A DNA stretch of 57,932 nucleotides, from IMG/VR virus record IMGVR_UViG_3300027597_000005, positions 1 through 57,932 of that record, one strand, 5' to 3'. Source of the DNA: a virus (Duplodnaviria; Caudoviricetes). Below the pieces are notes generated by a model. It ran no database searches and was not told the origin of the DNA. It saw only the letters and a program-made list of their open reading frames with translations. This document shows positions 11,834 to 50,074 of the stretch, piece by piece. The translations under genes and the position numbers were made by a program. Each line of letters opens with the position of its first letter. Position 1 is the stretch's first letter.

Positions 11834-11841
11834 TATTTATA
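11834..11841 (-). promoter_or_regulatory. T4-type late promoter
   Basis: TATAAATA on the minus strand. Confidence 0.7.
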
Positions 11842-14492: not shown

Positions 14493-14537
14493 TTTCCACT
14501 CCAATAATTGTGAATATTTTTAAAATGTTGTTTTATC

Positions 14538-14590: not shown

Positions 14591-15265
14591 TTATGAGCCA
14601 TTAATACATGATTTCATTAGTTTATTCCATGCTTCCAATTTAGCCTCTTGAAGATTTCTCGAAGATGCATTTTTTATTGAACGGCGGATTTCTTCGGCTA
14701 TTGCAACATCAGGGTCAGATGTGTCCCATGCAATAGTTCCTTCCATTAAACCATCAACAAATGCTTCTGGTGCAGATGGGTCATATACAATGTCAATAGC
14801 ACGTAAAATAAGACCGGGATTAACTTGATTTACACCATCACCACGTTCACGTACAGAACCGTCAGCACGAGAAGAAACAGCCAATTGTACGCCGCCTTCT
14901 AACAAAGCTTGTGCGATTTTCCCACAAGGGGTATCAAGCACTTTTGCCTTACCGATATAATAATTACCATCAATCTTTATTTCTTCTGTTAAGTGAGAAA
15001 TACGATCAGGATTGATTTTCGTGGTGTCTGGATGTGTTAATTCGCCTACGGCACGTCTCTTATTAACAAACTGTGTAATATAAGTGTTTGTCGCAGCATC
15101 AAGAATATCTTTTGGGTACATGCGATTGTTTCTATTAACAATGTTCGCCTGCATGAAGATACCTTTTATGTACCAATACTTTTTACCGTTAACTGTCTCG
15201 CTCAATATTTCAGTATCTTCGAAAAGTTGATCATGAAACGGCAATATGTTACTTTTACTAATCAT
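14591..15265 (-). CDS. gp21: Prohead protease
   Basis: YIKGIFMQA..VNRN.RMYP, GEL.HP, RISH, VSSR, DIV.DPSAPEAFV. Confidence 0.95.
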   Translation of the reverse strand: MISKSNILPFHDQLFEDTEILSETVNGKKYWYIKGIFMQANIVNRNNRMYPKDILDAATNTYITQFVNKRRAVGELTHPDTTKINPDRISHLTEEIKIDGNYYIGKAKVLDTPCGKIAQALLEGGVQLAVSSRADGSVRERGDGVNQVNPGLILRAIDIVYDPSAPEAFVDGLMEGTIAWDTSDPDVAIAEEIRRSIKNASSRNLQEAKLEAWNKLMKSCINGS

Positions 15266-16874: not shown

Positions 16875-18515
16875 TTATTGTTGCATTTGATCTTGCTCTT
16901 GTTGCATTTGTTGTGCAACAGCAATGTAATTTGACGCATCTATTCCTTGTTTCCCCAATATATCAGTTAATGATGAATCGGATTCTGCTTGTAACTGTGC
17001 AGTCAATTGTTGTTCATTAATTCTATTCTGAATATTTTCTTGACGATATTGTGCTGCTTGTTTTTTCAATTCCGCCGCAACTTCTTCTGTTACGTGTAAG
17101 ACATTGGTATAAACATAATCAGGGCCATAATATTTTCCAACAAAAGCATCTGCTGCCCCAATCATATTCAAACGACCTTGTAAAATTTCATTTTCTACAG
17201 ATTCTTTGAAATAGTTGTCAACGGTAAAATCAAAATACAAATTGTCACGGAATTCTTCCCAATCATCTAATCCAATTATTCCTTTTAATACTAACTGTCG
17301 TTTCAACAATTCAGCAAAAAGCTTTGAGAATTGAATACGCAAACGTTGAATATAATTAAAGAAGCGTAATTCATCACGAGTAATTTCAGAACCATGTGTA
17401 TACAAGGAACCTTGTTGAAAACGGGACGCTGGAACTTTTAATGCATCCCACAATTGAGTTTTGAAATAATCCAATTGACTAGTATTGTCGAAAGAGTCAC
17501 CACCGGGCAATGTATCAATTTCTGTGCCACGGCTACCACCTTGACGGGGTATGAAAAAGTCTTCATTCATTGACATGAATCGTTTTTCGTTTTTCACTTT
17601 GCCGGTAACGGGGTCATAAAGAATTTTTGTACGGTACTTGTCAGCGATTTCTTTGATATATTGGTCAATTTTTGCTTTAGGAAGATTACCAACGTCGATA
17701 TAGAATATTCTACGTTCGGGCGCACGTGTAAGCATATAGATAATCCCGCTTTCTTCTAACATACGCATGGAATTAGTAGTACGTATAGCAGTTTCCAAAG
17801 CGGATACCATGAAACCACGATCAGCGTCATAAATCCCTGAATTACATTGAACAACTGATTCCGGTGTTAATGTAATAGTAGTGGAAGTTGCGCCACCCGC
17901 CGTCGATGCACTTTGATCTATTCCGTTTTCATTAAAGATATAAAACTCTTTTATATTCCTGACAATTGGATGGCCATTTTGTATATCACGATTTATTTCA
18001 CGTATTTTCTTTATTTTCGTTGGTTCAACATATTGTAATTGTTGAATACCGTACTGAGGATTGTTTTCATCAATAGAAACCAAATAATTAATACGGCCAT
18101 CAACATACCAGCGTTTAGCAACTGTATGAGCGTCAGTGTTGAAATCTAATAACCCAAGAATTGTTTTAAACTCTTTATTAATTACTTCTTTCAACTCCAA
18201 CGAAATATCAATGGCATCCATATTCAAAGTAACAGCCGGTTTTTGATGTTCCATCACAACCATTTCACAAATTATTTCTTCTACTGCTAAATCAACTTCT
18301 GCCTGTCTTGCTATATCTCTATATTGAGCAATCGCATCGTTTTCTGTTTTAACCATTGATGTTATTTGTAATGATGTCGCCATAGGCGTCATGAAACCAC
18401 CAGAATAAAGGTCTACAGAAGGATCGTTTAGACTTGGCGCAATGTATTGCGTAACACCACTTGCAGAGTTTTTATCGGCAGAGCCAAAGCTAAAGCCAAA
18501 AATTTTAAATTGCAT
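16875..18515 (-). CDS. gp20: Portal protein
   Basis: WYVDGRI, RAPERRIFYIDVGNLPK, EDFFIPR..GSRGTEIDTLPGG, EITRDELRF. Confidence 0.97.
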   Translation of the reverse strand: MQFKIFGFSFGSADKNSASGVTQYIAPSLNDPSVDLYSGGFMTPMATSLQITSMVKTENDAIAQYRDIARQAEVDLAVEEIICEMVVMEHQKPAVTLNMDAIDISLELKEVINKEFKTILGLLDFNTDAHTVAKRWYVDGRINYLVSIDENNPQYGIQQLQYVEPTKIKKIREINRDIQNGHPIVRNIKEFYIFNENGIDQSASTAGGATSTTITLTPESVVQCNSGIYDADRGFMVSALETAIRTTNSMRMLEESGIIYMLTRAPERRIFYIDVGNLPKAKIDQYIKEIADKYRTKILYDPVTGKVKNEKRFMSMNEDFFIPRQGGSRGTEIDTLPGGDSFDNTSQLDYFKTQLWDALKVPASRFQQGSLYTHGSEITRDELRFFNYIQRLRIQFSKLFAELLKRQLVLKGIIGLDDWEEFRDNLYFDFTVDNYFKESVENEILQGRLNMIGAADAFVGKYYGPDYVYTNVLHVTEEVAAELKKQAAQYRQENIQNRINEQQLTAQLQAESDSSLTDILGKQGIDASNYIAVAQQMQQEQDQMQQ

Positions 18516-21576: not shown

Positions 21577-23262
21577 TCACCATCTAAATGAGTCATCAGG
21601 GTCTTTTTCTTCCCACACACCCTTTTCGCCTTTGAACTTAACGTATGTAGGGGCATTTGTAGTATCTTGGTTATTAACGTATCCAAATGGAATAAGATCA
21701 TTTTCAATATCTTCATCCGAAAAATCACGCATATGTGGCAATATATTACCATTAGCTAATTCATGAAAATAATTATCCTGTGTCAAAAATGCTAATAACA
21801 CTAAAGTCATGACCATATCATCATGGTTTCCGGGTTCAGCGGAATAACCATCACCCTTCTTGGAGAATGTTCTCAATTCTTTGATGGTCGCCTCATCACG
21901 CAACAACATGGTATTTTGTTCAAGCATTAACTTCAAAACCGAACATCCAAGACGTTTAACCGTGGTGGTGGTGCGCAACCCTATTTCTACACCCCTTCCA
22001 AAGCCTGTAGAAAGACGTTTACCGGCCCTTCCGGCAGATTCTGTACTTAGGATGTTCTCGTAGCCGTAATCGTATTGTAGAAGCACAGCGACCTGTTCTC
22101 CCAAGTCGTTTGTTTCGACAATAGTGTATGCATTGTTATACATTTTTGCAATACGATAAATCCAACTTGCATAATCGGTTGGGGTTATTTTATTATTACG
22201 GAAAATACAAACTTGACGATACGGAACTTCTGTAACATCAAAAACGCTAAATGCAGAATAATCCAACCCTTTACCACGTGAAACGTCACACGTCATAAAA
22301 TATATTCTGTCTTTTTCTGGTAATTCAAATTGTTTTAAAAAATCATTTGACGTAATGGGTGGGACTGGTAATAATCTACCTAATGTACTTGAGTTTAGAA
22401 GTGTACCAGCGGAGCCTAAAAACTCACCTTCATATTCTTGACGAAAACGGTCAAAGTCATAGTTCAAAGCTTTTAATGTGTCTGACTTCCATTTATCGTC
22501 ACGATTAGGTATTTTATACCAAGGTGCAAAAATAGGCGTAAATCCATTAAGTTCAACTTTTCCAGACTCATCTGGCGTACCATCAGTCGCCCCTTTCCAG
22601 AAATCATAGAAATGATTCAAACCATTAGGGGTACTCGTGAACAACATTTTTGTTGTTTTACCAGAAGAAATAGTTGGGAATGTTGATGCGTAAAAATCAG
22701 TCCAATTTTCAACGAATGCAGTTTCGTCAATGTATAAGAACGCCATAGACTTACCACGAATGGAACTTGAAGAAGAAGCCGCAGCAATGATTTTAGATTC
22801 GTTAGCAAACTCAACAGAACCCTTGTTCCATTCTTTAACCCCTATTTGCATCCAACGGGGAAGATTTTCATACGCCATTTGTATACGGTCTAAAATTTCA
22901 CGTGCTGAGTCCGCTTTATTGGCAAGTAGACCAATGCGTTTAGCATTATTGAAAATAGCAAAATGCAATAATACAATCGTTGCCACTGTAGTTTTACCTT
23001 GTTGACGACCAGTCAATACAATAACACGTCGATTGTTCAATGTAGCTTCAATAATTTCTTTTTGGAAATCATATAATTTAATTGGAATAACACCATAGTC
23101 AACACTAACAATCTTAATATATTTTTCAGCCCAATAAACCGGGTCAATAGAACAGCGATATAATTCTTGTATTTGTTCTAGTGTTAATGATTGTTTTGTT
23201 CCGGGTAGTTTTAGATTAGGATTACCATTATAACCCAATTCCCCTGTTAATTTCTGTGCCAT
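21577..23262 (-). CDS. gp17: Terminase large subunit
   Basis: YNGNPNLK, RQQGKTT, IRGKS, YIDETAFV, STPNGLNHFY, DVSRGKGLDYS, HDDMVM. Confidence 0.97.
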   Translation of the reverse strand: MAQKLTGELGYNGNPNLKLPGTKQSLTLEQIQELYRCSIDPVYWAEKYIKIVSVDYGVIPIKLYDFQKEIIEATLNNRRVIVLTGRQQGKTTVATIVLLHFAIFNNAKRIGLLANKADSAREILDRIQMAYENLPRWMQIGVKEWNKGSVEFANESKIIAAASSSSSIRGKSMAFLYIDETAFVENWTDFYASTFPTISSGKTTKMLFTSTPNGLNHFYDFWKGATDGTPDESGKVELNGFTPIFAPWYKIPNRDDKWKSDTLKALNYDFDRFRQEYEGEFLGSAGTLLNSSTLGRLLPVPPITSNDFLKQFELPEKDRIYFMTCDVSRGKGLDYSAFSVFDVTEVPYRQVCIFRNNKITPTDYASWIYRIAKMYNNAYTIVETNDLGEQVAVLLQYDYGYENILSTESAGRAGKRLSTGFGRGVEIGLRTTTTVKRLGCSVLKLMLEQNTMLLRDEATIKELRTFSKKGDGYSAEPGNHDDMVMTLVLLAFLTQDNYFHELANGNILPHMRDFSDEDIENDLIPFGYVNNQDTTNAPTYVKFKGEKGVWEEKDPDDSFRW

Positions 23263-24594: not shown

Positions 24595-27500
24595 TTAGTT
24601 CTTCAATGCAATAGCACGGAAACGTTTTGACCTTGGGATAATAGAACGATATCTATCATCACCTCTCGCAATTGTCGAAGAGTAAACAACTTTAATAACA
24701 AAGTTTGTAAAGTCTTCTGGTGATTCATACTGATATTTTGTTTCAGTGAAAACACCAATATCGTTAAATGAGTTACCACTAACAACTGTCATTTTCTTCC
24801 ACTGTGCATCATCCAATGTGACTGAGGTTGGAGTTGTTGAAACCTTACAATACACATCAATTTGTGTTCCCGATAACAAATTATTATCCAAATAAACTTG
24901 AAGTTCATTAGATGGGTTTACGAGTGTAACATTCTTGGTTGCATAACGAGCAATAGAATTATTCACTTCATATGTTATGCTATTATCATCCAATACTGCC
25001 GAGTCATTGAACTCATTGATACGATTATTAACAACATACATACCAACCTTATTAATATCAATAACAGGTGAGATATATTCATTAGGTGACGATATAGAAG
25101 CTGTTAATTGCATTGATTGGTCATTGTTTGATTTAACAACTTTCAATGTTCCCAAATCAATTAATTTATCTTCTATAATACCATAATTAGTTGAATCAAC
25201 AACCAAATTAGAGTAATATCCTTTAGCCTTCAAATTCCATTCTAATGACGTTCCATTCAACACAACGGCATCAGTATTCAAACGAACCATTGAATATGGT
25301 ATAACTTGAGAAGCAGTTATTTGGGTTCCGCCACCATTCAATACAGTTTGTGTGTTTGTTGCCCCTGTTACTGTAAAGCTATAAGTATCAATAGTTTCGC
25401 TTGTTATGGTATGTGAACCACTCAAGTCCGCAATCGTAAAGTCACCTAATACTATGTTACTACCACCATTATAGTTAGGATCAGATGGATAAGTTATAAT
25501 AACGGTATCACCAACCTTGAAACCATGATTTTTATGTTTCACAAAAACAGTAGAACCATCATCATAAGTAACATTAATATCAGCACCAATACCATCACCA
25601 GTAATTGTCAAAGTAGGGGCAGATGTGTAACCAACTCCATAATTTGTTATTTGGAAACCAGTAATTGATGCGTATACAATTGCATCCGCAGTAGCACCAG
25701 TTCCATCACCAGTAATAAGTATCGAAGTTGAAGCCGGGTCATAACCAGTACCACCATCAACCACTGTAATAGCAGTTACAGCACCACCACTAACAGTAAC
25801 ACTGACTGTTGCACCAGTACCAGTACCAACGACACTTGCCGATGCAGTAGTATAACCACTGCCACCTAAAGAAACGTTAACGTGATCCAAACTTCCCCTT
25901 AAAATTGGGTCAGCCGCAAACCCTGAACCACCCCCACCAGCAAATGCAAATGAAGCTGTTGTGTATCCAGAACCACCAGCCAATACATCTAGGTTAGGGC
26001 CGTAATACACAGACATCGGGTTGTTGTCAAGCAATTTCTTAAAAATATTTGCCTCTCCGTCAATGTCACTGTCTAACAATTTGTTGGTAAATGTTACATT
26101 ACCAGTTACATTATTGTCAAACTTGGCACGATAAATTGTGAACTTAATATCCTGAGATTGTTCTGCTGTCCAAGTGCTATGGTTTTGTGACTTGAACATA
26201 GTTCCCAAGTATGGCTGTTTGTTGATATATTCGCCAGTGAATGTGTTGATATCTCCCGGTCTAACAGCTTTCTGTCCCAATTCGGAACACCATAATGACA
26301 AATCTTCTGAGTTTGAAGAAACAACAAAAGCATATTCTTTATTAGGTTCCAAATAAACAGGATGATCAAAAGTGAACCTAGTAGGAACTGTTGAATCCAA
26401 CGAACCATAAAATACGTTCACGTCAACAGATGCAACCACATTCTTTCCGGGATAACCATTAACCATATCACATATTTGCAAATTAACAGGAGTTCCATCA
26501 ACACCAGCAATATCATCAGCTTCTGGGCCAAAATATAAATCCATTGATGTTATAAATGCGCCTTCTGGGTTTTCAATCACAAAAGATTGAGCAACAGGGT
26601 CATACCAATAATCATTTGTTGAAACAACACGGGTTGTAACAAAAACGTTTTGTAGTGTTACAGATGTGCCAGAAGCATCATAATTTCCAGTCGCACTTGT
26701 TGAGGGATTCTCAATGACATCTTTTACCTCAAACTTACGAACACCAGTTTTGAAACGCAAATTACTGTTATTTGGTATTAAGAACCAACCATTAATAACA
26801 CCAGCACCATTTGATTTCAATGTTTGGGTGTTACTTTGTGTAGTGTTCCACCATCCAAAATCATACCAGAAATACCAATAGTACCAGAAATACCATGTTG
26901 GGTACGAAATGGTGTTGTTAATTGTTTGGTAACAATACTGTGAAACATCAACGCCATCAAAATATGGCTTAACGACAGTATTTGGCTTCAATCCTGTTAT
27001 TCTAAATTGTACCCATCTGCTACGTATCCAAGGAACAGCCCCAACATCAACAGTACGTGTACCTACATAAGATGTTTGTGTGGTTGTTGTTGTATTTCTC
27101 CATTGGCGGCCTCTACCAAAAGAAAACCCCACAACATCTGTTCTTGCCGATGTTGATGAAGTAGTGGAACCATTGTGAACCATAGCATTTTCTTGGCCCA
27201 CAAAAACTTGTGCCGCCAAATCCCAAACTTTATTCTGTATAGTACCAGCACTTGTACCGCTTGGGTATGTTCCACCATCTAGTGTCAAATCAGGAGCGTA
27301 TTGGTAAGTAACCCAACGATCCACGTTTGGTGTAAGCTTTACACGACCACGCCATGCATACTGAACAAAAGGCTGCAAGCGTACAAGAGTAGAGGCCAAG
27401 CTTTGTTTAACATGTGCTACTTCGGTATAAGGTAATGTAATAATTCCATCATTATCTTGTGTGTTTGTATTTGTAGTAGAACTTAATTCCAAGTTAACAT

Positions 27501-30354
27501 GTGTGGTGACAGTTTCAGTGCACATTTCTCCTTTAGAGAAGTCAATAGCTACTGTGTGTAATGGGTTTTGTACATCACCAGTGGTTAAACTCTCAAAATT
27601 ATCAACAATAAATCCAGATTTAAACTTATCAAAAAACTCTTTCCCTTGTATATCAGTTTCAAGTAATGACAATTGTGTGTAATACTCAAGATTCTCAATA
27701 CGTTTTTCAAGTTGCGATATATCACGCATTGTGTAACGTTTGTAATTTTTCTTATCAACACTAACATCAGAAACCTTGAATGTATATGCAGGTATACGCA
27801 AAGTGTACAATGTAATAGAATCGTCTGCGTCAACCGGAGTTTTTGGGTCAAGTGCAGGAACACCACGTAATATTGTAAAAACACCCTTGCGATTCAAAAT
27901 TATATTATCAACACGTGACAAATAGTAATTATAATCAATAATAATATCAGTTGATGGTGTAACAAATGTTGGTGAAACATCAACAGAAGTTCTTAAATCA
28001 ACAACATTACCCAAGAAGTTTCCATTATAACTAGGAATATCCTCATAAGGAATTGTTGAGTATGAGTCAACTGTGAAGAAATCACCAGACAAGGAATGAC
28101 TAAAGTAAGTGTAAGACACCTTAACAGTACCTTGTGTTGGGGCATTGCTACCTGCCTTCAAACGAGCATAACCATAATCATAGATATCATTTTTCTGACC
28201 ATTGTCTAAAATATAATGATCAGTATAATCAATATAGCCGTTACCGTCATCTACTGATATAGATGATATAGCAATTATATCAGTATGATCCAATTTAACA
28301 TTTGCGATATCAGACGGTGAATAGCATGAATGTAATTCATCTACAACAGACGTTACTGATTTAGTTTTTGGTGTGTAATTATTTTTCGCAACACTTGCCC
28401 ATACGGTATAATTCATAGAGTTATAACCGCTTGGTAAATCAATTTCAACAACGCCAGTTTGTTTTATAATTGCTGTTGGGGTTACATATCCTACACCATC
28501 TATACAAACAACGTATGCACCAGAGTCAGAAACAAATTGTATTGTTGTGTCATTCAATGTTATCTTATCTGTTGAAACAGTACCAGAATAAGTCTTGTAA
28601 TATTGTAACAATGAACCAAAAACATTCTTGACATAGCTGTATGGTATGTTAAGTATGAAGTTGGAATTTGCTGTATTGACATTGATTGCACTTATTCCAG
28701 ATAATGCCGCCAATGGAGCATACTTACCACTTTGCGCAATATATGTTACAGAAGAAACGGTTGAATTGGCAACAATAGTTTTCAATTGTGTGAAATACAA
28801 CTTATAGATAGTGCCACTGAAATGCTCAAGGCCCATCGGCTGTGCTGTAAACAAAACTATATTTGAAGCATTGCGAAACTCAACAGGTGAACTTCTATTA
28901 AACAGATCAAACGCAGCATCAGTTGTAGCACCCGCTGGTGTAGTTCCAGAAGGGTTTAAGTCCAAATAAACATATGTTTCGTATGGGTTTGAGATATAAA
29001 CATCGTTAACCGTGTCTGTATCACGGCTCTTATCCAAAACAAGAGGTGGATTATTTGCAGTACGTTCAACTTCATGACCACGAACATATGCAAGGCCCGG
29101 CCCCATAATTGCAACCATCTTGTTACTATCGCCACCATTACCAACAGTGTACTTACCTAAGTTTGTTCCATTGTCCAAATGTTCACGCAAATCCAATGAA
29201 AAGTCATTTATGATATAATCACCAGACTCATTGTAAGTTCTCTTTTCCAATATATCTAAAAACAATTGTGAGTAATCAGTTTGATTCGGTGGTGTTGTAG
29301 CAGTACCACTTTGTAAAACCATTAACTGAACAAAGTTTTTAACAGATTCATCTGTTGGCTTCACCGAGAATGTCAATTCCATTTTGTAACGTGTAGCGCC
29401 CGGTGCTGATTCATTAGGAGAACCAATAGCATTATCGTATAAACTATTGTCATCTTCCGGGGTAATGATAATATCAGAAACCAAAAACCCTAAAGAAATT
29501 TCGTTCTCAGTTTGCGTGATATCAGTGTACTTTGAAACGACAAGTGTTTGACGATCAACTATAGCAAAACGACCATTTATAAAATAGATACCATCATTTA
29601 TAAATGCTAGAGCACCAAAACCAATACCTGATTGTGTTATATCAGCTACAAAATCTTCATACAATTCAGTTTCGTTGTTATACAAACTGAATGTAACCCC
29701 TGTATTGATCAATTCAGCAGTAGCAACCCCACCAGTACCAACCCCACCAATAATAACAGAAGGAGCAGTAGTATATCCAGAACCATTATTAGTTATAGTT
29801 ATATCTGTAATAACACCAGCAGTAACGGTTGCAGTGGCAGTTGCACCAGTACCATCACCTGTGATAGTAATTGTTGGTGCCGAAGTATATCCAGTCCCAC
29901 CATTTGTAATGTTTATTTTATAAACAGAAGACGAAGAAAATGACTGAATATGACCTTCCGATGAAGTATATTCAACATAAACCGTTGCTGGGTCGGTGGT
30001 AGTGCTTGCAACATAATGGGTAATTTTACCTGTAAGGCTACCCTTGGTTATAGTCCCACCAATATAATTGTGTGTTGTTGACAATGGCAACGACATTGTG
30101 CTTGGCAATTTTATATATTCAATTTGCTGTTTTAACGAAGTTTCACCACCAATGATTTTTGCACCATTGTCGAAAAAGTGGCTACCCATACGTGCAACTT
30201 GATCTTGCAAAATAGTTTGCATTTGTGTCAATTCACGGGCTTGAACTCCCATACCCGGACGAAACAATACCTGCAAAAACTTTTTGCTTATATCGAAATC
30301 ATCGTAATATGGTCTTTGTGTAAATGTTTTTAGTTTTGTTTGGTATCCTGCCAC
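24595..30354 (-). CDS. Large virion structural protein, DUF4815/VrlC-like
   Basis: PYYDDFD..K.F..VLFRPG..VQARELTQMQTILQ.Q, YTMRDI..LEKRIENLEYYTQLSLLE, FKSGFIVDNF, DPVAQSF, WTAEQSQDIKF; GTG start with AGGAG RBS. Confidence 0.88.
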   Translation of the reverse strand: MAGYQTKLKTFTQRPYYDDFDISKKFLQVLFRPGMGVQARELTQMQTILQDQVARMGSHFFDNGAKIIGGETSLKQQIEYIKLPSTMSLPLSTTHNYIGGTITKGSLTGKITHYVASTTTDPATVYVEYTSSEGHIQSFSSSSVYKINITNGGTGYTSAPTITITGDGTGATATATVTAGVITDITITNNGSGYTTAPSVIIGGVGTGGVATAELINTGVTFSLYNNETELYEDFVADITQSGIGFGALAFINDGIYFINGRFAIVDRQTLVVSKYTDITQTENEISLGFLVSDIIITPEDDNSLYDNAIGSPNESAPGATRYKMELTFSVKPTDESVKNFVQLMVLQSGTATTPPNQTDYSQLFLDILEKRTYNESGDYIINDFSLDLREHLDNGTNLGKYTVGNGGDSNKMVAIMGPGLAYVRGHEVERTANNPPLVLDKSRDTDTVNDVYISNPYETYVYLDLNPSGTTPAGATTDAAFDLFNRSSPVEFRNASNIVLFTAQPMGLEHFSGTIYKLYFTQLKTIVANSTVSSVTYIAQSGKYAPLAALSGISAINVNTANSNFILNIPYSYVKNVFGSLLQYYKTYSGTVSTDKITLNDTTIQFVSDSGAYVVCIDGVGYVTPTAIIKQTGVVEIDLPSGYNSMNYTVWASVAKNNYTPKTKSVTSVVDELHSCYSPSDIANVKLDHTDIIAISSISVDDGNGYIDYTDHYILDNGQKNDIYDYGYARLKAGSNAPTQGTVKVSYTYFSHSLSGDFFTVDSYSTIPYEDIPSYNGNFLGNVVDLRTSVDVSPTFVTPSTDIIIDYNYYLSRVDNIILNRKGVFTILRGVPALDPKTPVDADDSITLYTLRIPAYTFKVSDVSVDKKNYKRYTMRDISQLEKRIENLEYYTQLSLLETDIQGKEFFDKFKSGFIVDNFESLTTGDVQNPLHTVAIDFSKGEMCTETVTTHVNLELSSTTNTNTQDNDGIITLPYTEVAHVKQSLASTLVRLQPFVQYAWRGRVKLTPNVDRWVTYQYAPDLTLDGGTYPSGTSAGTIQNKVWDLAAQVFVGQENAMVHNGSTTSSTSARTDVVGFSFGRGRQWRNTTTTTQTSYVGTRTVDVGAVPWIRSRWVQFRITGLKPNTVVKPYFDGVDVSQYCYQTINNTISYPTWYFWYYWYFWYDFGWWNTTQSNTQTLKSNGAGVINGWFLIPNNSNLRFKTGVRKFEVKDVIENPSTSATGNYDASGTSVTLQNVFVTTRVVSTNDYWYDPVAQSFVIENPEGAFITSMDLYFGPEADDIAGVDGTPVNLQICDMVNGYPGKNVVASVDVNVFYGSLDSTVPTRFTFDHPVYLEPNKEYAFVVSSNSEDLSLWCSELGQKAVRPGDINTFTGEYINKQPYLGTMFKSQNHSTWTAEQSQDIKFTIYRAKFDNNVTGNVTFTNKLLDSDIDGEANIFKKLLDNNPMSVYYGPNLDVLAGGSGYTTASFAFAGGGGSGFAADPILRGSLDHVNVSLGGSGYTTASASVVGTGTGATVSVTVSGGAVTAITVVDGGTGYDPASTSILITGDGTGATADAIVYASITGFQITNYGVGYTSAPTLTITGDGIGADINVTYDDGSTVFVKHKNHGFKVGDTVIITYPSDPNYNGGSNIVLGDFTIADLSGSHTITSETIDTYSFTVTGATNTQTVLNGGGTQITASQVIPYSMVRLNTDAVVLNGTSLEWNLKAKGYYSNLVVDSTNYGIIEDKLIDLGTLKVVKSNNDQSMQLTASISSPNEYISPVIDINKVGMYVVNNRINEFNDSAVLDDNSITYEVNNSIARYATKNVTLVNPSNELQVYLDNNLLSGTQIDVYCKVSTTPTSVTLDDAQWKKMTVVSGNSFNDIGVFTETKYQYESPEDFTNFVIKVVYSSTIARGDDRYRSIIPRSKRFRAIALKN

Positions 30355-42803: not shown

Positions 42804-44660
42804 ATGACAAATAATGATAATTTTAAGGTTCTAACGGACGAAGAACATTTAAAGCTTAGACCCTCCATGTATATCGGCTCTGTTGACGAGACTGATATAT
42901 CAACATATTTTATAAACCTATCTGATGGGGTATTATCAGAAGCGGAATATAAATCAATAAAGATAGTTCCCGGCCTTGCAAAGATAATCAATGAAATCAT
43001 TGACAATAGTGTTGATGAAAGTATTAGAACCAATGGGAAATATGCGAACAAAATAGACATATCCATGAAAGAAAACCTAGATGGTTTTCTGGTGACAGTA
43101 CGTGATAACGGTCGTGGTATTCCTATTGTAAAACCAGATGGTGTTGATGAATACAGACCAGTATTATCTTGGTCTAGGGCACGTTCTGGCACTTCTTTTG
43201 ATGCTAACCGTGTTACGTTAGGTGCTAATGGCGTTGGGTCATTTGCAACATATGTTTTTTCAACCAAGTTTTTTGGGGAGACGCATGATGGTACACATGG
43301 TTTGACTTTTCAAAAAGACGGTATGATAACAAAAGTCACTAAATCTAAAAAGAATTTCACCGAAGTTACCTTTTTACCAGATTTGGAACAATTCAACAAG
43401 GGTGAAGTTTCTTTTAATAATCATGCTGAATATATCAGACAACGATTGATAAACTTGTCCATATGTTATCCTAAGATTAAGTTTACTTTTAATGGTGATT
43501 TGGTTTCCATACATGATATGTCTGCGTTAGCAACATCATTTTATAAAGATAATATTATTGTTAAGGAAAATGATTTCACAATTATAATAGGTTCTACTGC
43601 CGAGTTCCAAGAGTTTAGATTCCATTCGTATGTTAATGGTTTACATACTCCAAATGGCGGCGCAGTTGTTGATTATATCACTTCCGAAGTGTGTAGTCTT
43701 CTTCAACCACTAATAAAAAAGAAGCATAAGATTGAAGTAACACCAAGTCAAATAAAAAATAATTTGTTTCTTGGTTTGTATGTTGTTAATTTTCAAAACT
43801 TGAAGTTTGATTCACAAACTAAAGAAAAAATAACAAACAGTCGTAATGAAGTTGCTGAGTTTTTTAAAGGTTATGATTTCACTGGTTTGGCTAAGAAGAT
43901 TTTAACAACTGAAAATATCATCAATCCAATAATACAATCTATACTTGCAAAGAAAGAATTAGCTGAACGCTTGGAGTTAGCTAGAAAACAAAAGAAATCA
44001 CAGAAATTAGATATTGTAAACCATATACAAGCAACATATCCTGAACCAGAGGAACGAATATTATTTGTTGCAGAAGGTCTTTCCGCTATGTCCCCTTTAT
44101 TGGCTACTAGAAAATCCACGAAAATTGGTGGTTATCCCCTGCGTGGTAAGATTTTGAATGTCACTGGAATGAAGTATAACGCCATAATGGATAACGTCAC
44201 CGTGTCTGAATTGATATCAGTCATTGGATTGCATCTTGGAAAACCACCACAGGATTTGAATTATGGAAAAATTGCGATTATGACGGATGCTGACGTTGAC
44301 GGTATCAGTATCAGAATGCAATTGGTTAATCTGTTCTATTTGTGGGGAACAAGGTTGTTTGATGAAAAACGTGTGTTCATAGTTAAGACACCTTTATTAT
44401 CCGCTCAAAAAGGAAATGATTTAAGACTTTATTATTCGTTTGATGAATACAATAAAGATAAGAAGAATATAAGGGGTTATGAGGAAACATATTTTAAAGG
44501 TCTTGGTACTATGCCACTAGAAGTGTATGAACAGTGCATTAATAATCCTAAATTGGTTCCTATAACATTATCGTCGGAATCTGATAAACGTCATTTAGAA
44601 ATGGCTTTCGGAGATGATTCTGATATGAGAAAGAAATGGTTGTTGGGTGAGTTTAAATGA
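42804..44660 (+). CDS. gp39: DNA topoisomerase II large subunit (gp39+gp60 fused; ATPase plus TOPRIM)
   Basis: RPSMYIGS, EIIDNSVDE, DNGRGIP, GANGVG, EGLSA, PLRGK, TDADVDG, KGLG. Confidence 0.95.
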   Translation: MTNNDNFKVLTDEEHLKLRPSMYIGSVDETDISTYFINLSDGVLSEAEYKSIKIVPGLAKIINEIIDNSVDESIRTNGKYANKIDISMKENLDGFLVTVRDNGRGIPIVKPDGVDEYRPVLSWSRARSGTSFDANRVTLGANGVGSFATYVFSTKFFGETHDGTHGLTFQKDGMITKVTKSKKNFTEVTFLPDLEQFNKGEVSFNNHAEYIRQRLINLSICYPKIKFTFNGDLVSIHDMSALATSFYKDNIIVKENDFTIIIGSTAEFQEFRFHSYVNGLHTPNGGAVVDYITSEVCSLLQPLIKKKHKIEVTPSQIKNNLFLGLYVVNFQNLKFDSQTKEKITNSRNEVAEFFKGYDFTGLAKKILTTENIINPIIQSILAKKELAERLELARKQKKSQKLDIVNHIQATYPEPEERILFVAEGLSAMSPLLATRKSTKIGGYPLRGKILNVTGMKYNAIMDNVTVSELISVIGLHLGKPPQDLNYGKIAIMTDADVDGISIRMQLVNLFYLWGTRLFDEKRVFIVKTPLLSAQKGNDLRLYYSFDEYNKDKKNIRGYEETYFKGLGTMPLEVYEQCINNPKLVPITLSSESDKRHLEMAFGDDSDMRKKWLLGEFK

Positions 44661-45121
44661 ATACAATGGAATTGGATGTAACTAACTTGGAAATAAATGA
44701 TTCATCAATAGAGTTTAATGGGTTAGCTTTTACCCAAACTAATGCCGATAAGCGTGATGAGAATAACATAATGATAGCAATGGACAACTATAAGTCATTT
44801 TGTGAAGCTGCTGTTGAAAAAGAGCGAAATCAATTGTATGAGAAAATTGACAAGGCATTATTTGAATTGAAAGAAAATCAAATGTTAATTTATGTTCCAA
44901 AAGATATGAAAGTAATTGGTGTTAAAAGTGCATTTGTTACTAAATTATTTAAAAATGAATTAAAGGAAAAATCTAAATCTAGATATTTTAAAGCACAAAT
45001 ATTGGAAATATGCTGTGAATATAAAGATTCTGATGGAAATGTAAAAACAGAGTGGATACTACTAACACATTATTCACCGACACAATTTATTAAAAAAATA
45101 ATAACAGAGGAAATACTATAA
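44657..45121 (+). CDS. Hypothetical protein
   Basis: ATGA-coupled ORF. Confidence 0.65.
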   Translation: MNTMELDVTNLEINDSSIEFNGLAFTQTNADKRDENNIMIAMDNYKSFCEAAVEKERNQLYEKIDKALFELKENQMLIYVPKDMKVIGVKSAFVTKLFKNELKEKSKSRYFKAQILEICCEYKDSDGNVKTEWILLTHYSPTQFIKKIITEEIL

Positions 45122-45630
45122 TGGTTAATAAAATAGATTTAAGTAAAGACCCAAATATTCTCGTATATGGCGGTCTTGAGTATGATTCAGCGTGTGTTGA
45201 TGATGTTGTACCAGAAGAAGAACCATTAAAAGATGATGAAATTATTACTTTATGGGGTGTTAAGCATGTCAATGAAGTTAAAAATGAACTGGTTGATGAT
45301 TCTCTCGGTGCAATGTATAACCGCATTTTGACACTTATTGCAGAATCTACTCCTAGTAAGTATGTCACATATAATAAAGAACGTGTTGTAGGAGTTAGAC
45401 GTTTTGAGGAAGTTATGGTTACTAAAGAATCATTTTTCCAAACAAATGCGTATAACTTCACTAGAAACGTAGAACGTCTTAAAAATGAATACGCAAATGA
45501 TAAGTTGGAAATATGTGTTGTCACTTCTTCTGCTGATGCTGATATTAACGGTCGTAAGTGGATACAATCGCCGCCGACATTTGTAAATTTTGCTATTGTT
45601 GAAATTAATGAAAAGCCGATATATCGTTAA
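45121..45630 (+). CDS. Hypothetical protein with a weak gp23-like segment
   Basis: GAGG RBS; see findings. Confidence 0.65.
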   Translation: MVNKIDLSKDPNILVYGGLEYDSACVDDVVPEEEPLKDDEIITLWGVKHVNEVKNELVDDSLGAMYNRILTLIAESTPSKYVTYNKERVVGVRRFEEVMVTKESFFQTNAYNFTRNVERLKNEYANDKLEICVVTSSADADINGRKWIQSPPTFVNFAIVEINEKPIYR

Positions 45631-45699
45631 GATATCGGCTTTAACTATTATCACATAATTTACATATTTTTACTAAACACATATAAATGGATTTAAAAA

Positions 45700-47067
45700 A
45701 TGAAAAAAGGAAAAAAGGTAGAGGAACAAGAGATTGATATCGACTTGTTATCGCCTATAACTGTTACTGATTACATCAATCAACATTATATGGATTACTC
45801 ATTGTATGTTATCCAATCACGTGCTCTCCCAAACTATATTGATGGTTTGAAAGTTGTTCAACGCAAATTGATATATGCCGCATTACAAATGGCAGCACAC
45901 AAAAAAGTAAAGGTAGCAGAGTTAGGGTCTTCACTTAGTTCATATGAATATCTTCATGGCGAAACCTCTGCTCAAGATGCTTTGGTTAGTATGGCTGCAT
46001 CATGGAAAAACAACATTCCATTATTCGATGGTCATGGTAACTTCGGTTCTCGTCTAATACAAGAATCAGCGGCCCCCCGTTACATTTATGTTAGCCTTTC
46101 CGACAAGTTTAAAGATACCTTCATAGACACCTCTGTTTGCGATTTTAAGGCCGATACACCAGAACCCATAACTTACCTACCTGTTATTCCGTGGTCGCTT
46201 ATAAACGGCATTTCAGGCGTTGCAGTGGGCTTTGCGAGTAACATTCTTCCTCGTGAATGGAAAGATGTTAAGCAAGCATGTTTGGAATACCTGACTAAAG
46301 GAAAAATAAAAACAGTTATGCAGGTAAAATATCCACATTTCAATGGGAAAGTTGAATTGCTTGAGGATGGGAGATGGGCAACATATGGTATTGTTGATAA
46401 AGAAAAGGTTGGGCGTAAAGAGGCTTATGTCATTAAAGAATTGCCTATTGGTTATGATCGTGAAAAATACTTCAATATTTTATTGAGACTTAAAAATGCC
46501 AATAAAATAAATGATTTTGATGATGAATGTAATAAGAATGGTTTTCGTTTTGTGGTCTATACTTCACCAGAACAAAATAAGGCTATTGACAAGGACATTA
46601 CTAAGTTTTTTGGATTAATGAAAACAGAAACAGAGAATATTTCAACTGTTGATGAACATGGGAAGTTGCGTATTTTCACATCAGTTGAAGATTTGGTGAA
46701 AGATTTTTGTAATTATCGTTTACAAAAGACAAAAGATTCGTTACAATACAGTATAAATCAAACTGAACAACGTCTTTTGGAGATGACTGTAAAAAAACAG
46801 TTTATTACGAATGTTGTTGAAAATGTAATCAATCTGAAAAATTATACTAAGAAAGAATTGGCTTCATATGTTTGTTCACTTGGAAATAATGTTTCGAATG
46901 ATATTTCAGAAAAGATTATATCAATACCATCCTATTCGTTTACTAAAGATAATATATTAGATTTAGAAAAGCAAATCTCTAAAGTAAATGATGAATTGAA
47001 TAAGCTTAGAAATAGCAATGAAAAAGACGTATTGGTTGATAAGATTAAAAAATTGAATTTGGATTAA
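45700..47067 (+). CDS. gp52: DNA topoisomerase II medium subunit (GyrA/ParC-like)
   Basis: RALPNYIDGLK.VQRK, YLHGE, GNFGSR, AAPRY catalytic Tyr. Confidence 0.95.
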   Translation: MKKGKKVEEQEIDIDLLSPITVTDYINQHYMDYSLYVIQSRALPNYIDGLKVVQRKLIYAALQMAAHKKVKVAELGSSLSSYEYLHGETSAQDALVSMAASWKNNIPLFDGHGNFGSRLIQESAAPRYIYVSLSDKFKDTFIDTSVCDFKADTPEPITYLPVIPWSLINGISGVAVGFASNILPREWKDVKQACLEYLTKGKIKTVMQVKYPHFNGKVELLEDGRWATYGIVDKEKVGRKEAYVIKELPIGYDREKYFNILLRLKNANKINDFDDECNKNGFRFVVYTSPEQNKAIDKDITKFFGLMKTETENISTVDEHGKLRIFTSVEDLVKDFCNYRLQKTKDSLQYSINQTEQRLLEMTVKKQFITNVVENVINLKNYTKKELASYVCSLGNNVSNDISEKIISIPSYSFTKDNILDLEKQISKVNDELNKLRNSNEKDVLVDKIKKLNLD

Positions 47068-47079
47068 AGGATTAAAGAA

Positions 47080-47601
47080 ATGGAAGATCGTGAAGTATTT
47101 TATGTTGATGTTGGGAACATGAGTAAGGAAAAAATAAATGAGATAATTGAGGAAACAGTAAAAGGGTTTTCAGCGAGGGTTTATACTGTTGATAGATTAG
47201 AACATAATGTTCACCCTGTTGAACCACTATTGGGCACTATTATTGAGAAGATTTGGGAATGGAATGACATTGCTGGTACACAAAAGAATGAAACCACAAT
47301 GGCATTGTATAAGAATCTTATCACGGAAGAATATGAAGAGTTTTTGGAAGCCTATGGTAATAAAGATCATGTCGAGGAACTAGATGCATGCGTTGATATG
47401 ATTTGGGTTATTGTTGGTTATATGCGTTCCCGTGGTTGGTCTAAGGAATTGTCTAAAGCTGCATTTGATGAAGTTCAGCGTTCTAATTTCTCTAAGTTTG
47501 TTGATGACAATGGGGAAGTAAAATGTGTAAAGCGTGAAGATGGAAAGATATTGAAGCCTTCTACATTCTCTCCCGCAGACATATCCGGTTTGTTTGTATG
47601 A
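47080..47601 (+). CDS. All-alpha NTP pyrophosphatase (MazG/PRA-PH-like) with an N-terminal portal-like peptide
   Basis: LITEEYEEF, EELDACVD, EVQRSNFSK, REDGKILKP. Confidence 0.85.
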   Translation: MEDREVFYVDVGNMSKEKINEIIEETVKGFSARVYTVDRLEHNVHPVEPLLGTIIEKIWEWNDIAGTQKNETTMALYKNLITEEYEEFLEAYGNKDHVEELDACVDMIWVIVGYMRSRGWSKELSKAAFDEVQRSNFSKFVDDNGEVKCVKREDGKILKPSTFSPADISGLFV

Positions 47602-48053
47602 CAAATTGGCCTATGACCATATATTATCGTAAAAGTTCTCCTGATAAAACCTATCAGGAGTTTTACGAAGAGCATATGAAAAAAATACCTTCTAAAAAGA
47701 AATATGAAGAAATTTTGGAAGAATTGAATGAAACACAAAAGGTTTCGGATGGGTCATATGACCTTAATGAAACATATAATGCCTTTTATAAGAGATACAT
47801 GGATTCAGTTAAGCCAAAATACTTCTTGTATGTTCAACATAGTAAAGTAGTCGAAACAGTTGATGTTAATAACGTACATGAATTTCAAGCTTTCTTGGAA
47901 CATGCGAAAGACATGAATTATGAAGTGTTAATAACAGATAAAGCAAAATCTGCTATATTAAGTCCACCATCTACTAATATTGAATCATATGGCACCACAG
48001 CAGTTGAAGTGCAGCCAATTTATAGTTCAGATATACAGAATATATTAAAATGA
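47598..48053 (+). CDS. Hypothetical protein, paralog of the N-domain of 48618..49343
   Basis: Shared pattern P..I.Y.....Y.E......PS...Y. Confidence 0.65.
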   Translation: MTNWPMTIYYRKSSPDKTYQEFYEEHMKKIPSKKKYEEILEELNETQKVSDGSYDLNETYNAFYKRYMDSVKPKYFLYVQHSKVVETVDVNNVHEFQAFLEHAKDMNYEVLITDKAKSAILSPPSTNIESYGTTAVEVQPIYSSDIQNILK

Positions 48054-48610
48054 GAATTATAACAATTTCATATAATGACTTGTTGCCACAAGGATACATT
48101 GAAGTCAATTGTACATCAAGGGGTGATAAGTATAAAGAATTATCGCCTTTCACTCATTATGACGTTAGGTTTAAAGATATATTTGCTAATAATGTTGAAA
48201 ACGCATGGCAATTTTCGAAAGTATATCCACAACATGATGATAATGGAACCCCAAATGAAAAATGGTATGAATGGAGAGAAAGAGGATTCAAGTCTTCTTT
48301 TGCTTATCGCTATCCTATGGGGAAAGGGGCAAAGCCACTGTATTCTTATGTTGATGGTGTGAAGTATGATTATGTTTCTGCAAGAAAAGAAATATATTTT
48401 CCACTATACATTGATTTTTGTTTACATAATTCGGTATTTTTGGAATTGTATAAAGAAGTATGTGATGGATATGAATGTTATGCTATTCGTGATTTTGATG
48501 CATATAAAATGAAAAAACTGACACTGAAAGAAGTAGTAAACAACCCATATAAAAAAGTTGGTCATGGTTTTGTTTTGTACCATTTATTGACTAACGAAAA
48601 TTATAAGTGA
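48050..48610 (+). CDS. DUF6939-like protein (possibly NADAR-related)
   Basis: TSR...LSPF, VENAWQFSKVY, YVSARKEIY.PLY, GHG. Confidence 0.6.
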   Translation: MRIITISYNDLLPQGYIEVNCTSRGDKYKELSPFTHYDVRFKDIFANNVENAWQFSKVYPQHDDNGTPNEKWYEWRERGFKSSFAYRYPMGKGAKPLYSYVDGVKYDYVSARKEIYFPLYIDFCLHNSVFLELYKEVCDGYECYAIRDFDAYKMKKLTLKEVVNNPYKKVGHGFVLYHLLTNENYK

Positions 48611-48617
48611 GATAATA

Positions 48618-49343
48618 ATGAAATACCCTTATCTAATATTTTACAAACAAAAAGTTGACAATTCATTAAGTTATGATGAATATGTCGGTTTATATGAAAA
48701 GGCATTGCCATCGGAAAATGAATACATGGAATACCATTCTTTGATTGGTAAGCTACCATTATTAACATATGATGAAATGATAAAACGTGAGCGTGATGGT
48801 TTTAAATCTAAGTACGAAAGTTATAGAAAGATAACATCACAGATAAATTCTAGACCAATTGATTCAGATGAAACTTATAATGAGTTTATTGATGAGTGTA
48901 TTGAAAATGGTTATGAATTATTTGATGATGATAAAAATACATTTTCTACTGTTGATATAACATGGAAGAAAAATTACGTAAAGGATATTTTGGTAACACT
49001 TTCAAACACGGTATCCAGAAATGGTGTTATCTATAGTAATGATGTTTTGGAATCTATGTCTAAACAAATAAATGAAAACAAAATATTATGTTTAAGCGGC
49101 ATACGTGATGATTTTAAAATAGATTTGGAAAATGTTGTTGGTATATGTCAGAATGCTAAAGTAACGGAGAAAGGATTAACAACAGATTTAAAAGTATTTA
49201 ATGGTTTCACATTGGACAGAGAGCATTTTACTGTAGGGTTTTGCTCATCTGGAAATGTTGATGATAAAGGTAATGTTAACGACATTGAAATAAAATATTC
49301 ATATATTTTTCCAAAAGAAGATTCACAATGGAAAAAGAGTTAA
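48618..49343 (+). CDS. Two-domain protein with a degenerate prohead-protease-like C-domain
   Basis: NTVSRNGVIYSNDVLE aligns with gp21 NIVNRNNRMYPKDILD. Confidence 0.65.
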   Translation: MKYPYLIFYKQKVDNSLSYDEYVGLYEKALPSENEYMEYHSLIGKLPLLTYDEMIKRERDGFKSKYESYRKITSQINSRPIDSDETYNEFIDECIENGYELFDDDKNTFSTVDITWKKNYVKDILVTLSNTVSRNGVIYSNDVLESMSKQINENKILCLSGIRDDFKIDLENVVGICQNAKVTEKGLTTDLKVFNGFTLDREHFTVGFCSSGNVDDKGNVNDIEIKYSYIFPKEDSQWKKS

Positions 49344-50065
49344 CAAAAACTGAATTATTCATAAAGAAAGCCAAAGCTATACATGGCGACAAGTATAATT
49401 ATGATAAAACTGTATATGTAAAAAGTTTACAAAAAGTAATCATTACATGTCCTGTTCATGGCGATTTCGAACAATTTCCAAATAATCATATTCTCAAAAA
49501 ATGTGGGTGTTATGCATGTAGTGGTAGAAATATAAAACCAGTTAATAAAAGGGCGTTAACAACATCATCTTTTATTGAGAAAAGTAAAAAAGTACACGGT
49601 GACAAGTATAATTACGATAAAACAGATTATTCACATTCACATATAAAAGTTATATTAACTTGTCCTAAACATGGTGATTTTTTAGTTTCTCCAAATAATC
49701 ATTTACGAAATGAAAAAGAGGGTGGTTGTCCAAAATGTCATTATGGCGTACCATCAAATAATGAGGTTATTGAAAACTTTAAAAAAGTACATGGTAATAA
49801 GTATAATTATGATAAAACAGTTTATGAAAATAGTTGTTCAAAGGTAATAATTACATGTTCTATTCATGGTGATTTTGAACAGTTGGCACGAAGTCATTTA
49901 AAAGGTCATGGTTGTAAAAAGTGTAGTTATATGTATAGCAAAAAATATTGTTTGTGCCCTATTCATGGACAATTTCCGAAAACAAAATATAATATAAAGC
50001 ATGGTTGCCCTAGTTGTAATATTTTGAATAATTGTGATTGTGAAGAATGTAAAAAGGGAGTTTAA
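49328..50065 (+). CDS. Zinc-binding repeat protein of homing-endonuclease type (DUF723-like repeats)
   Basis: Three copies of HG.KYNYDKT.Y....KVI.TC..HGDF......H....GC..C plus a partial fourth. Confidence 0.75.
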   Translation: MEKELTKTELFIKKAKAIHGDKYNYDKTVYVKSLQKVIITCPVHGDFEQFPNNHILKKCGCYACSGRNIKPVNKRALTTSSFIEKSKKVHGDKYNYDKTDYSHSHIKVILTCPKHGDFLVSPNNHLRNEKEGGCPKCHYGVPSNNEVIENFKKVHGNKYNYDKTVYENSCSKVIITCSIHGDFEQLARSHLKGHGCKKCSYMYSKKYCLCPIHGQFPKTKYNIKHGCPSCNILNNCDCEECKKGV

Positions 50066-50074
50066 ACTCCCTTT
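50053..50074. terminator. Bidirectional terminator
   Basis: AAAGGGAGTTT / AAACTCCCTTT between convergent genes. Confidence 0.7.

Follow-up and report, generated by a model that had tools for sequence, protein, structure and literature searches.

The gene block and its two head-protein-like parts

The window analysed here is an entire IMG/VR virus record (IMGVR_UViG_3300027597_000005; 57,932 bases, with a completeness estimate of 33%), and its source is a divergent, uncultivated T4-like phage of marine type. One co-directional block of nine genes contains two that carry parts resembling head proteins encoded elsewhere in the window: o241, of which the C-terminal domain resembles the prohead protease gp21, and o173, a MazG-like enzyme of which an N-terminal tag resembles the clip of the portal protein gp20. 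An original prediction, made from the same sequence, had described the region as a cluster of degenerate copies of three head proteins (portal, protease and capsid). The portal and protease likenesses were recovered and the capsid likeness was not, which leaves a pair of intact, conserved genes with head-protein-like parts of different kinds and not a stretch of degenerate head-gene copies. The features concerned are the following:

42804-50065, plus strand: co-directional gene block, topoisomerase II large subunit to DUF723-repeat protein (no late-promoter motif)
48618-49343, plus strand: o241, 241 amino acids (aa), uncharacterised N-domain joined to a predicted dead gp21-type protease domain (open reading frame (ORF); AlphaFold2)
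48618-48968, plus strand: N-domain of o241, residues 1-117, alpha/beta (homologues P0002, P0005, P0006, P0007 and P0011)
48969-49343, plus strand: C-domain of o241, residues 118-241, truncated and predicted dead prohead-protease (gp21/S77) fold (structure and profile comparison)
47080-47601, plus strand: o173, 173 aa, MazG-like nucleoside triphosphate pyrophosphohydrolase with N-terminal tag (PF01503, phrog_671)
47086-47181, plus strand: portal-clip-like strand-turn-helix, residues 3-34 of o173 (BLASTP, Pfam)

The nine genes of block 42804-50065 run in the same direction in the order topoisomerase II large subunit, o154, o169, topoisomerase II medium subunit (PF00521, E 3.6e-75), o173, o151, o186, o241 and DUF723-repeat protein, with intergenic gaps of -16 to +69 nucleotides (nt). 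The gene o241 thus lies among replication genes, 33 kb from the head module with the true protease (14591-15265).

The C-domain of o241 has the fold of the prohead protease

The AlphaFold2 model of o241, built on an alignment of 16 rows, had a mean predicted local distance difference test (pLDDT) score of 90.7. When its C-domain was compared with 48,161 PDB representatives, T4 gp21 (5jbl_A) ranked first with a VIA Z of 11.4 and a root-mean-square deviation of 2.4 A over 115 residues (o241 118-233 on gp21 37-172), followed by the proteases of varicella-zoster virus (Z 8.2) and cytomegalovirus (Z 6.4), so that only the top two exceeded Z 8. Similarly, a Foldseek comparison of o241 with gp21, which had been proposed as a check, put three 5jbl chains on top of the PDB matches (E 1.7e-3 to 4.5e-3, thus all above 1e-3) and yielded 65 BFVD models at E <= 1e-3; among the BFVD matches listed with a functional name, 18 of 19 were annotated as prohead or capsid-maturation protease or as prohead core.

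The likeness was also found between profiles. Alignment with hhalign of the 11-member C-domain family to six gp21 proteins gave a probability of 91.9% and an E of 7e-7 over 105 columns. The profile of the C-domain family, searched against ten terminase-related virus records, matched exactly one open frame (199-242 aa) in eight of the ten (E 4e-7 to 9.9e-4); seven of these frames carry the NxNxRxY, GExxHP and VS[ST]R motifs, and in the eighth the Ser motif is present. Within the o241 family conservation is strongest in N, Y and L of SRNGVIYS..L, which is also the N-terminal motif most conserved among the true gp21 proteins. A direct BLASTP comparison of o241 with the phage's own protease found 16/49 identical residues (E 0.003, or 0.044 against 12 head-region proteins).

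In PMC5694885 the catalytic triad of the gp21 protease is given as His/Ser/Asp. With His85 (GELNHP) and Ser140 (VSSRG) counted in a T4-type gp21 sequence, the hhalign alignment places Asp164 of o241 at the His position, Gly207 at the Ser position and Tyr229 at the Asp position. Across the 11 family members the His column reads D N S H Q D Q Q Q Q E (His in 1/11), the Ser column G G G G A G A A A A F (Ser in 0/11) and the Asp column Y Y Y Y D N D D D D F (Asp in 5/11, all of them members without His and Ser). Since none of the 11 holds the full triad, the whole family is, judged from these columns, inactive by the gp21 mechanism. The C-domain also has no counterpart of the first ~36 residues of gp21 (the N-terminal pro-segment) or of its C-terminal ~40-50 residues (the tail). 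We therefore regard the C-domain of o241 as very probably a truncated pseudo-protease that has lost His, Ser and Asp together with the pro-segment and the tail. The claim that a protease-like domain here lacks the catalytic residues thus stands on firmer ground than when it was made.

Some observations weigh against this assignment. Pfam PF03420 was silent on the C-domain (E <= 10) and on its relatives (E <= 1), and gp21 was not among the hits when the family profile was run against the PDB by hmmsearch. A shift of the register by two residues would put Cys209 at the position of the nucleophile, a column with Cys in 3/11 and Ser in 1/11 members. Finally, none of the ten terminase-related records (mostly fragments; one complete genome of 144.8 kb) held a second, pseudo-protease-like match; because it is absent from all ten, the pseudo-protease appears to be sporadic and not needed for head assembly.

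T4 gp68 was considered as a relative of the dead domain and rejected, two T4-type gp68 proteins being charged and, by eye only, unlike the domain. Three small ORFs separate the portal gene from the protease gene in the window; none belongs to a family, and none gave a BLASTP hit to o241 better than E 5.5. NCBIfam held no family for the block proteins queried.

Domain composition and relatives of o241

A phmmer scan of 1.84 billion representatives with o241 retrieved 11 proteins. The relatives other than o241 itself are either proteins of ~120 aa that match residues 1-117 or proteins of ~130 aa that match residues 120-240, and a profile search added five C-domain relatives. Besides o241, the C-domain family takes in 10 clusters, whose proteins stand alone and are 126-177 aa long. 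The longest contigs of the closest N-domain and C-domain clusters are equal in size (85,886, 31,988 and 4,711), which suggests that the nearest relatives encode the two halves as separate genes of one contig; since this is very probably so, o241 itself is best described as a fusion. An identical copy of the o241 protein is also present on a contig of 91 kb.

The N-domain found no clear fold relative among the 48,161 PDB representatives and no usable match in the ESM Atlas. A paralogue of the N-domain lies two genes upstream of o241 (hhalign probability 92.8%, E 3.9e-7):

47598-48053, plus strand: o151, paralogue of the N-domain of o241 (hhalign)

There are thus two copies of this ~115-aa domain within 1 kb, one stand-alone and one fused to the dead protease. 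A six-residue stretch in o151 presumably resembles the targeting signal of T4 internal proteins; it was rejected as a capsid-targeting signal, since its place is within helix 1 of a folded domain and not at the N-terminus.

A tblastn search with o241 of 50,697 phage records gave no match, and queries of IMG/VR with o241, gp52, P0003, P0012 and alignment A5 returned no close relatives of the region. A single metagenome contig (L009, 4.9 kb) was found as a relative of the region; the neighbouring ORFs of the C-domain homologue on it bear no likeness to head genes, judged by eye and with no family search. Conservation in relatives had been proposed as a check, and both the protease and the portal piece are conserved in other metagenomic phages.

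A portal-clip-like tag on a MazG-like enzyme

The core of o173 is a MazG-like pyrophosphohydrolase: PF01503 (PRA-PH) matches with E 3.8e-7 (30.9 bits, cut-off 21.3) and phrog_671 with E 1.2e-29, and we collected 862 homologues. E83, E84, E87, D102 and D106, which we take to be the metal ligands, are invariant across 20 aligned sequences. AlphaFold2 models the core (residues 50-173) mostly above pLDDT 90; residues 16-30 form a helix and residues 31-45 are disordered, so that the N-terminal element is, as modelled, tethered to the core by a flexible linker.

A gapless alignment pairs residues 3-34 of o173 with residues 267-298 of the portal protein encoded by the phage itself: of the 32 positions 12 are identical and 22 positive, at a BLASTP E of 1e-6 when the two proteins are compared alone and of 7e-6 in a comparison with 12 head-region proteins. 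The portal profiles respond as well: Portal_T4 (PF07230) matches the tag with E 0.0029 in the whole protein (16.9 bits) and with E 0.00018 in the first 40 aa (20.8 bits), both below the gathering score of 22.9 and over profile positions 205-237 only (33/433), and phrog_213, the portal family of PHROG, matches o173 with E 0.00043. The local score of o173 against the portal is 77, and 3000 shuffles of the protein gave none that reached 77 (maximum 74). Ranked against the portal with the portal's own frame skipped, o173 comes first of 229 listed stop-to-stop frames of at least 60 aa, the next scoring 59. The likeness of tag and portal thus exceeds chance, at the level of a motif only. The portal peptide that had been reported at 47083 is real in this sense; it is a tag of 32 residues on an enzyme and no degenerate portal.

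The portal segment that matches the tag corresponds to residues 281-315 of T4-type gp20, within the clip domain (279-358), and includes N291, M292, R295 and K296. According to PMC4493910 these four residues contact the packaging ATPase gp17, and a gp20 peptide of residues 288-311 binds gp17 and inhibits packaging. The tag itself corresponds to residues 281-312 of a T4-type gp20 and so covers the counterpart of that peptide. Among 19 aligned o173 homologues (the 16 best and three distant ones), 10 share the first ~10 residues of the tag, with a strand motif of the form basic-basic-V-F-Y-I-D/E-V, followed by a linker of variable length, and the tip residues of the tag are retained only in the closest homologues.

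Against a specific relation to the portal stands that Portal_T4 hits just one of the ten motif-bearing MazG homologues (E 0.027), the others weakly matching unrelated strand-helix families (ubiquitin, flagellin), and that a phmmer search of 177,635 PDB sequences with o173 put T4 gp20 on top with an E of 0.95 only; both favour a generic strand-helix element. In the DNA, tag and portal gene are identical at 51/96 positions and, near random, at 11/32 third codon positions, and because of this the tag is not a recent copy of the portal. Common descent of tag and portal is doubtful to us, and that the tag acts as a functional mimic of the clip is distinctly less likely still. When the large terminase of the phage (alignment of 27 rows) was modelled in complex with o173 1-48, the score was 0.03 against a mark of 0.32, which weighs neither for nor against docking of the tag.

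In the complete relative of 144.8 kb (L087, record G002, 143058-143570, minus strand) the MazG-like gene lies in a frame of 223 aa with a long N-terminal extension. As this extension lacks the clip-like motif, the N-terminal extensions of the MazG-like proteins vary between phages.

For the MazG clusters P0027, P0029 and P0024, the longest contigs are equal in size to those of the C- or N-domain clusters P0009, P0005 and P0145 (3,745, 24,490 and 25,438, respectively). This hints at a conserved module of the o173, N-domain and C-domain genes. Equal sizes can mislead, which counts against the module: for P0031 and an IMG/VR record, both 11,929, the equality proved on direct check to be a coincidence. 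The link between o241 and o173 rests on their proximity here and on the equal sizes of contigs in the databases.

Promoters and timing

The head genes with which o241 and o173 were compared lie in a module on the minus strand, with strong Pfam matches for gp23, scaffold, S77 protease and gp20, and with the large terminase beyond:

11914-13215, minus strand: major capsid protein gp23 (PF07068, E 2.5e-135)
13407-14504, minus strand: scaffold (strong Pfam match)
14591-15265, minus strand: true prohead protease, gp21 type (S77) (PF03420, E 6.2e-35; His and Ser motifs present)
16875-18515, minus strand: portal protein gp20 (PF07230, E 5.7e-137), with the o173-like clip segment at ~17622-17717
21577-23262, minus strand: large terminase, gp17 type (phrog_5989, E 1.7e-64)

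The structural region also holds an ORF of 1919 aa (24595-30354, minus strand).

We found six copies of the T4 late-promoter core TATAAATA in the window, all within 11.8-30.4 kb (at 11834, 14538, 16556, 20132, 20367 and 30390) and each immediately 5' of an ORF listed in the structural part. The shorter ATAAATA is depleted, with 11 copies observed across the window and 37 expected from shuffles, and is absent from the plus strand past 20.4 kb. Such depletion would be expected if stray late promoters were selected against. Early or middle transcription of the o241/o173 block, together with the replication genes, is predicted from two features that support it, the absence of the late motif from the block and the tight packing of its genes. 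The assumption that both pieces are made before the late head proteins, on which the proposed decoy role depended, fits these data.

Neighbouring genes

45121-45630, plus strand: o169, 169 aa, orphan ORF between the topoisomerase II genes (no family)
48050-48610, plus strand: o186, 186 aa, between the two N-domain genes (no assigned family)
50053-50074, plus strand: terminator-like hairpin that ends the block (hairpin)

A capsid helix had been suspected at 45235, in o169. The best BLASTP segment of o169 against the phage's own gp23 has 6/17 identical residues (E 0.31), and o169 has no family in Pfam (E <= 1, including PF07068), PHROG or NCBIfam and no usable match in the ESM Atlas, so this likeness is noise. 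Non-significance of the similarities, named beforehand as what would speak against the cluster, was thus found for the capsid piece and not for the portal and protease pieces.

The best family match of o186 is DUF6939, below threshold (E 0.001; 19.2 bits, cut-off 27), and neither PHROG nor NCBIfam holds a family for it. It may share a module with the flanking N-domain genes.

The last gene of the block (49328-50065, plus strand) encodes a protein of 245 aa with three tandem zinc-ribbon-like repeats (DUF723) of ~75 aa. PHROG endonuclease and HNH-endonuclease families match its repeat part only (positions 301-430/576 and 121-308/607, respectively), with no nuclease domain seen, and its DNA is ~70-75% identical to stretches of unrelated jumbo phages (TH47, Lak phages, phiR1-37 and XaC1). 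The gene has the look of a mobile DNA-binding module, or else of what remains of a homing endonuclease.

The nearest of 50,697 phage genomes is that of Pseudoalteromonas phage XG4, with 62.6% identity in the capsid protein and 38.8% in the topoisomerase subunit gp52, and in the comparison of gene order with XG4 gp52 alone was matched. The topoisomerase II subunit genes flank two small ORFs both in the window (44657-45630, plus strand) and in XG4 (L003:5967-6913), and the sequences of these ORFs are unrelated. This site inside a conserved topoisomerase II pair looks like a plastic insertion spot.

What the two genes may do

We consider it probable, with some reserve, that the region is an early or middle accessory block beside the topoisomerase II genes in which two intact genes carry head-protein-like parts of different kinds. 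The dead protease domain may have kept the peptide-binding or oligomerising surfaces of its fold. Made before the real protease, o241 could then bind gp21, or cleavage sites of the gp21 type, without cutting, and would thereby regulate or buffer the action of the head protease outside the prohead. This mode of action, the most likely of those considered, is a tentative proposal built on a hypothetical binding of o241 to gp21 or to its substrates, and we give it somewhat less than an even chance. For the tag of o173, a role in docking or oligomerisation within this clade of MazG-like enzymes is probable.

Bacterial defences are able to sense phage structural proteins: Avs STAND ATPases sense portal and terminase, and CapRel and Lit sense the capsid protein. 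It was against such systems that the fragments were proposed to act as decoys.

For the cyclic oligonucleotide-based antiphage signalling system (CBASS), a 2026 preprint (PMC12991175) reports that a large share of the systems detect phages via cleavage by the prohead protease, and that activation by T4 gp21 needs the active site of the protease and cleavage of a loop of the CD-NTase (the cGAS/DncV-like nucleotidyltransferase), "not simply complex formation". Because activity and not presence is sensed in that account, a dead copy cannot titrate CBASS by being sensed. An anti-CBASS role for o241 would thus be conceivable only as shielding or as a non-cutting competitor, unlike the decoy that was proposed; a role of the pair as immune decoys would be speculative.

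Among the other explanations that were weighed, the one that survives best, itself unlikely, needs no connection with head proteins: long ago the gp21 fold would have been taken up as a generic beta-barrel binder for some unrelated task, perhaps in nucleotide metabolism with the MazG-like enzyme, and the tag would be a generic strand-helix that resembles the portal by convergence. The near-random third-codon identity of tag and portal (11/32), the single Portal_T4 hit among ten homologues with equally weak matches to ubiquitin and flagellin motifs, the E of 0.95 in the PDB, the shuffle maximum (74) close to the observed 77 and the apparent co-occurrence of MazG homologues with both domains on contigs (judged from equal sizes) are all in line with it. 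It leaves unaccounted for that the tag leads the 229 listed frames against the portal by 18 score units (the portal's own skipped), that T4 gp20 came first of 177,635 PDB sequences, and that N, Y and L of the SRNGVIYS..L motif are common to the dead domain and true gp21.

Slightly less probable is an anti-defence function, in which the early dead domain would shield the bait loops of CD-NTases or restrain gp21 while the tag would occupy a sensor of terminase or portal, or the terminase itself. Cleavage of the CD-NTase loop by gp21 is what triggers CBASS (PMC12991175), both genes lie outside the late module and have no late motif, the family has the sporadic, accessory character that is frequent among counter-defence genes, and the tag covers the gp20 peptide 288-311 that is reported to bind gp17 and to inhibit packaging (PMC4493910). 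However, a plain decoy would fail against a system that senses activity (PMC12991175), the tip residues are kept in the closest homologues only, a conserved substrate groove in the dead domain is only presumed, and binding to a sensor is only hypothetical. The most far-reaching form of this idea, in which o241 would be the first pseudo-protease counter-defence protein, binding cleavage loops or free gp21, and the MazG-like enzyme would dock on the terminase through its clip mimic, is in our view improbable.

At much the same low level we place the possibility that both are minor head or ejected proteins, with o241 as a non-catalytic component of the core and the tag of o173 as the signal by which the enzyme would reach the portal or prohead. 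In giant phage SPN3US a truncated paralogue of the protease may be such a core component, the top BFVD match is a protein of 142 aa annotated as prohead core scaffold protein, and the tag sits on a disordered linker like a targeting peptide; yet the genes are packed in a block with replication genes that lacks the late motif, the L009 homologue is not found among head genes (neighbours judged by eye) and the family is absent from ten related records, mostly fragments.

That the pieces are debris of recombination, i.e. decaying fragments of head genes, which had been kept as an alternative, is largely refuted and very improbable: both pieces are indeed short and diverged and lie in a plastic region where XG4 has unrelated ORFs, but the ORFs are intact with start-stop overlaps and a confident fold, belong to conserved families with relatives in other phages, and show no likeness in DNA that would point to a recent copy (third-codon identity 11/32).

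Comparison with known systems

Dead copies of capsid-maturation proteases have barely been described. The apparent inactivity of the o241 family throughout means that it is kept for something other than cutting, and an early, non-cutting look-alike of gp21 is a candidate regulator of head maturation or a candidate counter-measure against the sensing of the protease by CBASS; should neither binding nor an effect on CBASS be seen, o241 remains a well-documented pseudo-enzyme. The portal-clip-like tag of o173 overlaps the one portal peptide that is reported to bind the packaging motor. In the literature searched, gp117 of phage SPN3US was the sole example of an inactive prohead-protease paralogue that we found, and nothing was on point for mimicry of the portal by MazG.

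The MazG-like pyrophosphohydrolases of phages (PF01503, phrog_671) are like the core of o173 (residues ~50-173), including the invariant acidic residues, but most of the listed homologues do not cover its tag and linker (many align to 49-62% of the query). Residues 3-34 of o173 line up with the clip of T4 gp20 from its first strand through the tip (G-N-M...K) to where the next helix begins. The tag differs from the clip in that it comprises 32 residues, of which 12 are identical, stays below the Pfam threshold and sits on an enzyme, so that mimicry is at most predicted.

With T4 gp21 itself (MEROPS S77, PF03420, 5JBL) the C-domain of o241 shares the core fold and the NxNxRxY..L motif. In contrast to gp21, o241 has its triad replaced, is missing both ends, is fused to an unrelated domain, is encoded outside the head module and is not recognised by Pfam.

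The closest described case to o241 is gp117 of SPN3US, described in PMC5694885 as a "cryptic" truncated prohead-protease paralogue in a giant phage. Like o241, gp117 is, by that account, a diverged, truncated and presumably inactive paralogue of the gp21 type that occurs alongside an active enzyme. The two differ, as far as gp117 can be compared by its description there, in that gp117 is reported to match the Ser and Asp of the active site, while nothing of the triad is left in o241. Unlike gp117, moreover, o241 is a fusion protein, is found in a T4-like and not a giant phage, is encoded in a block of replication genes, and belongs to a family that appears to be inactive throughout.

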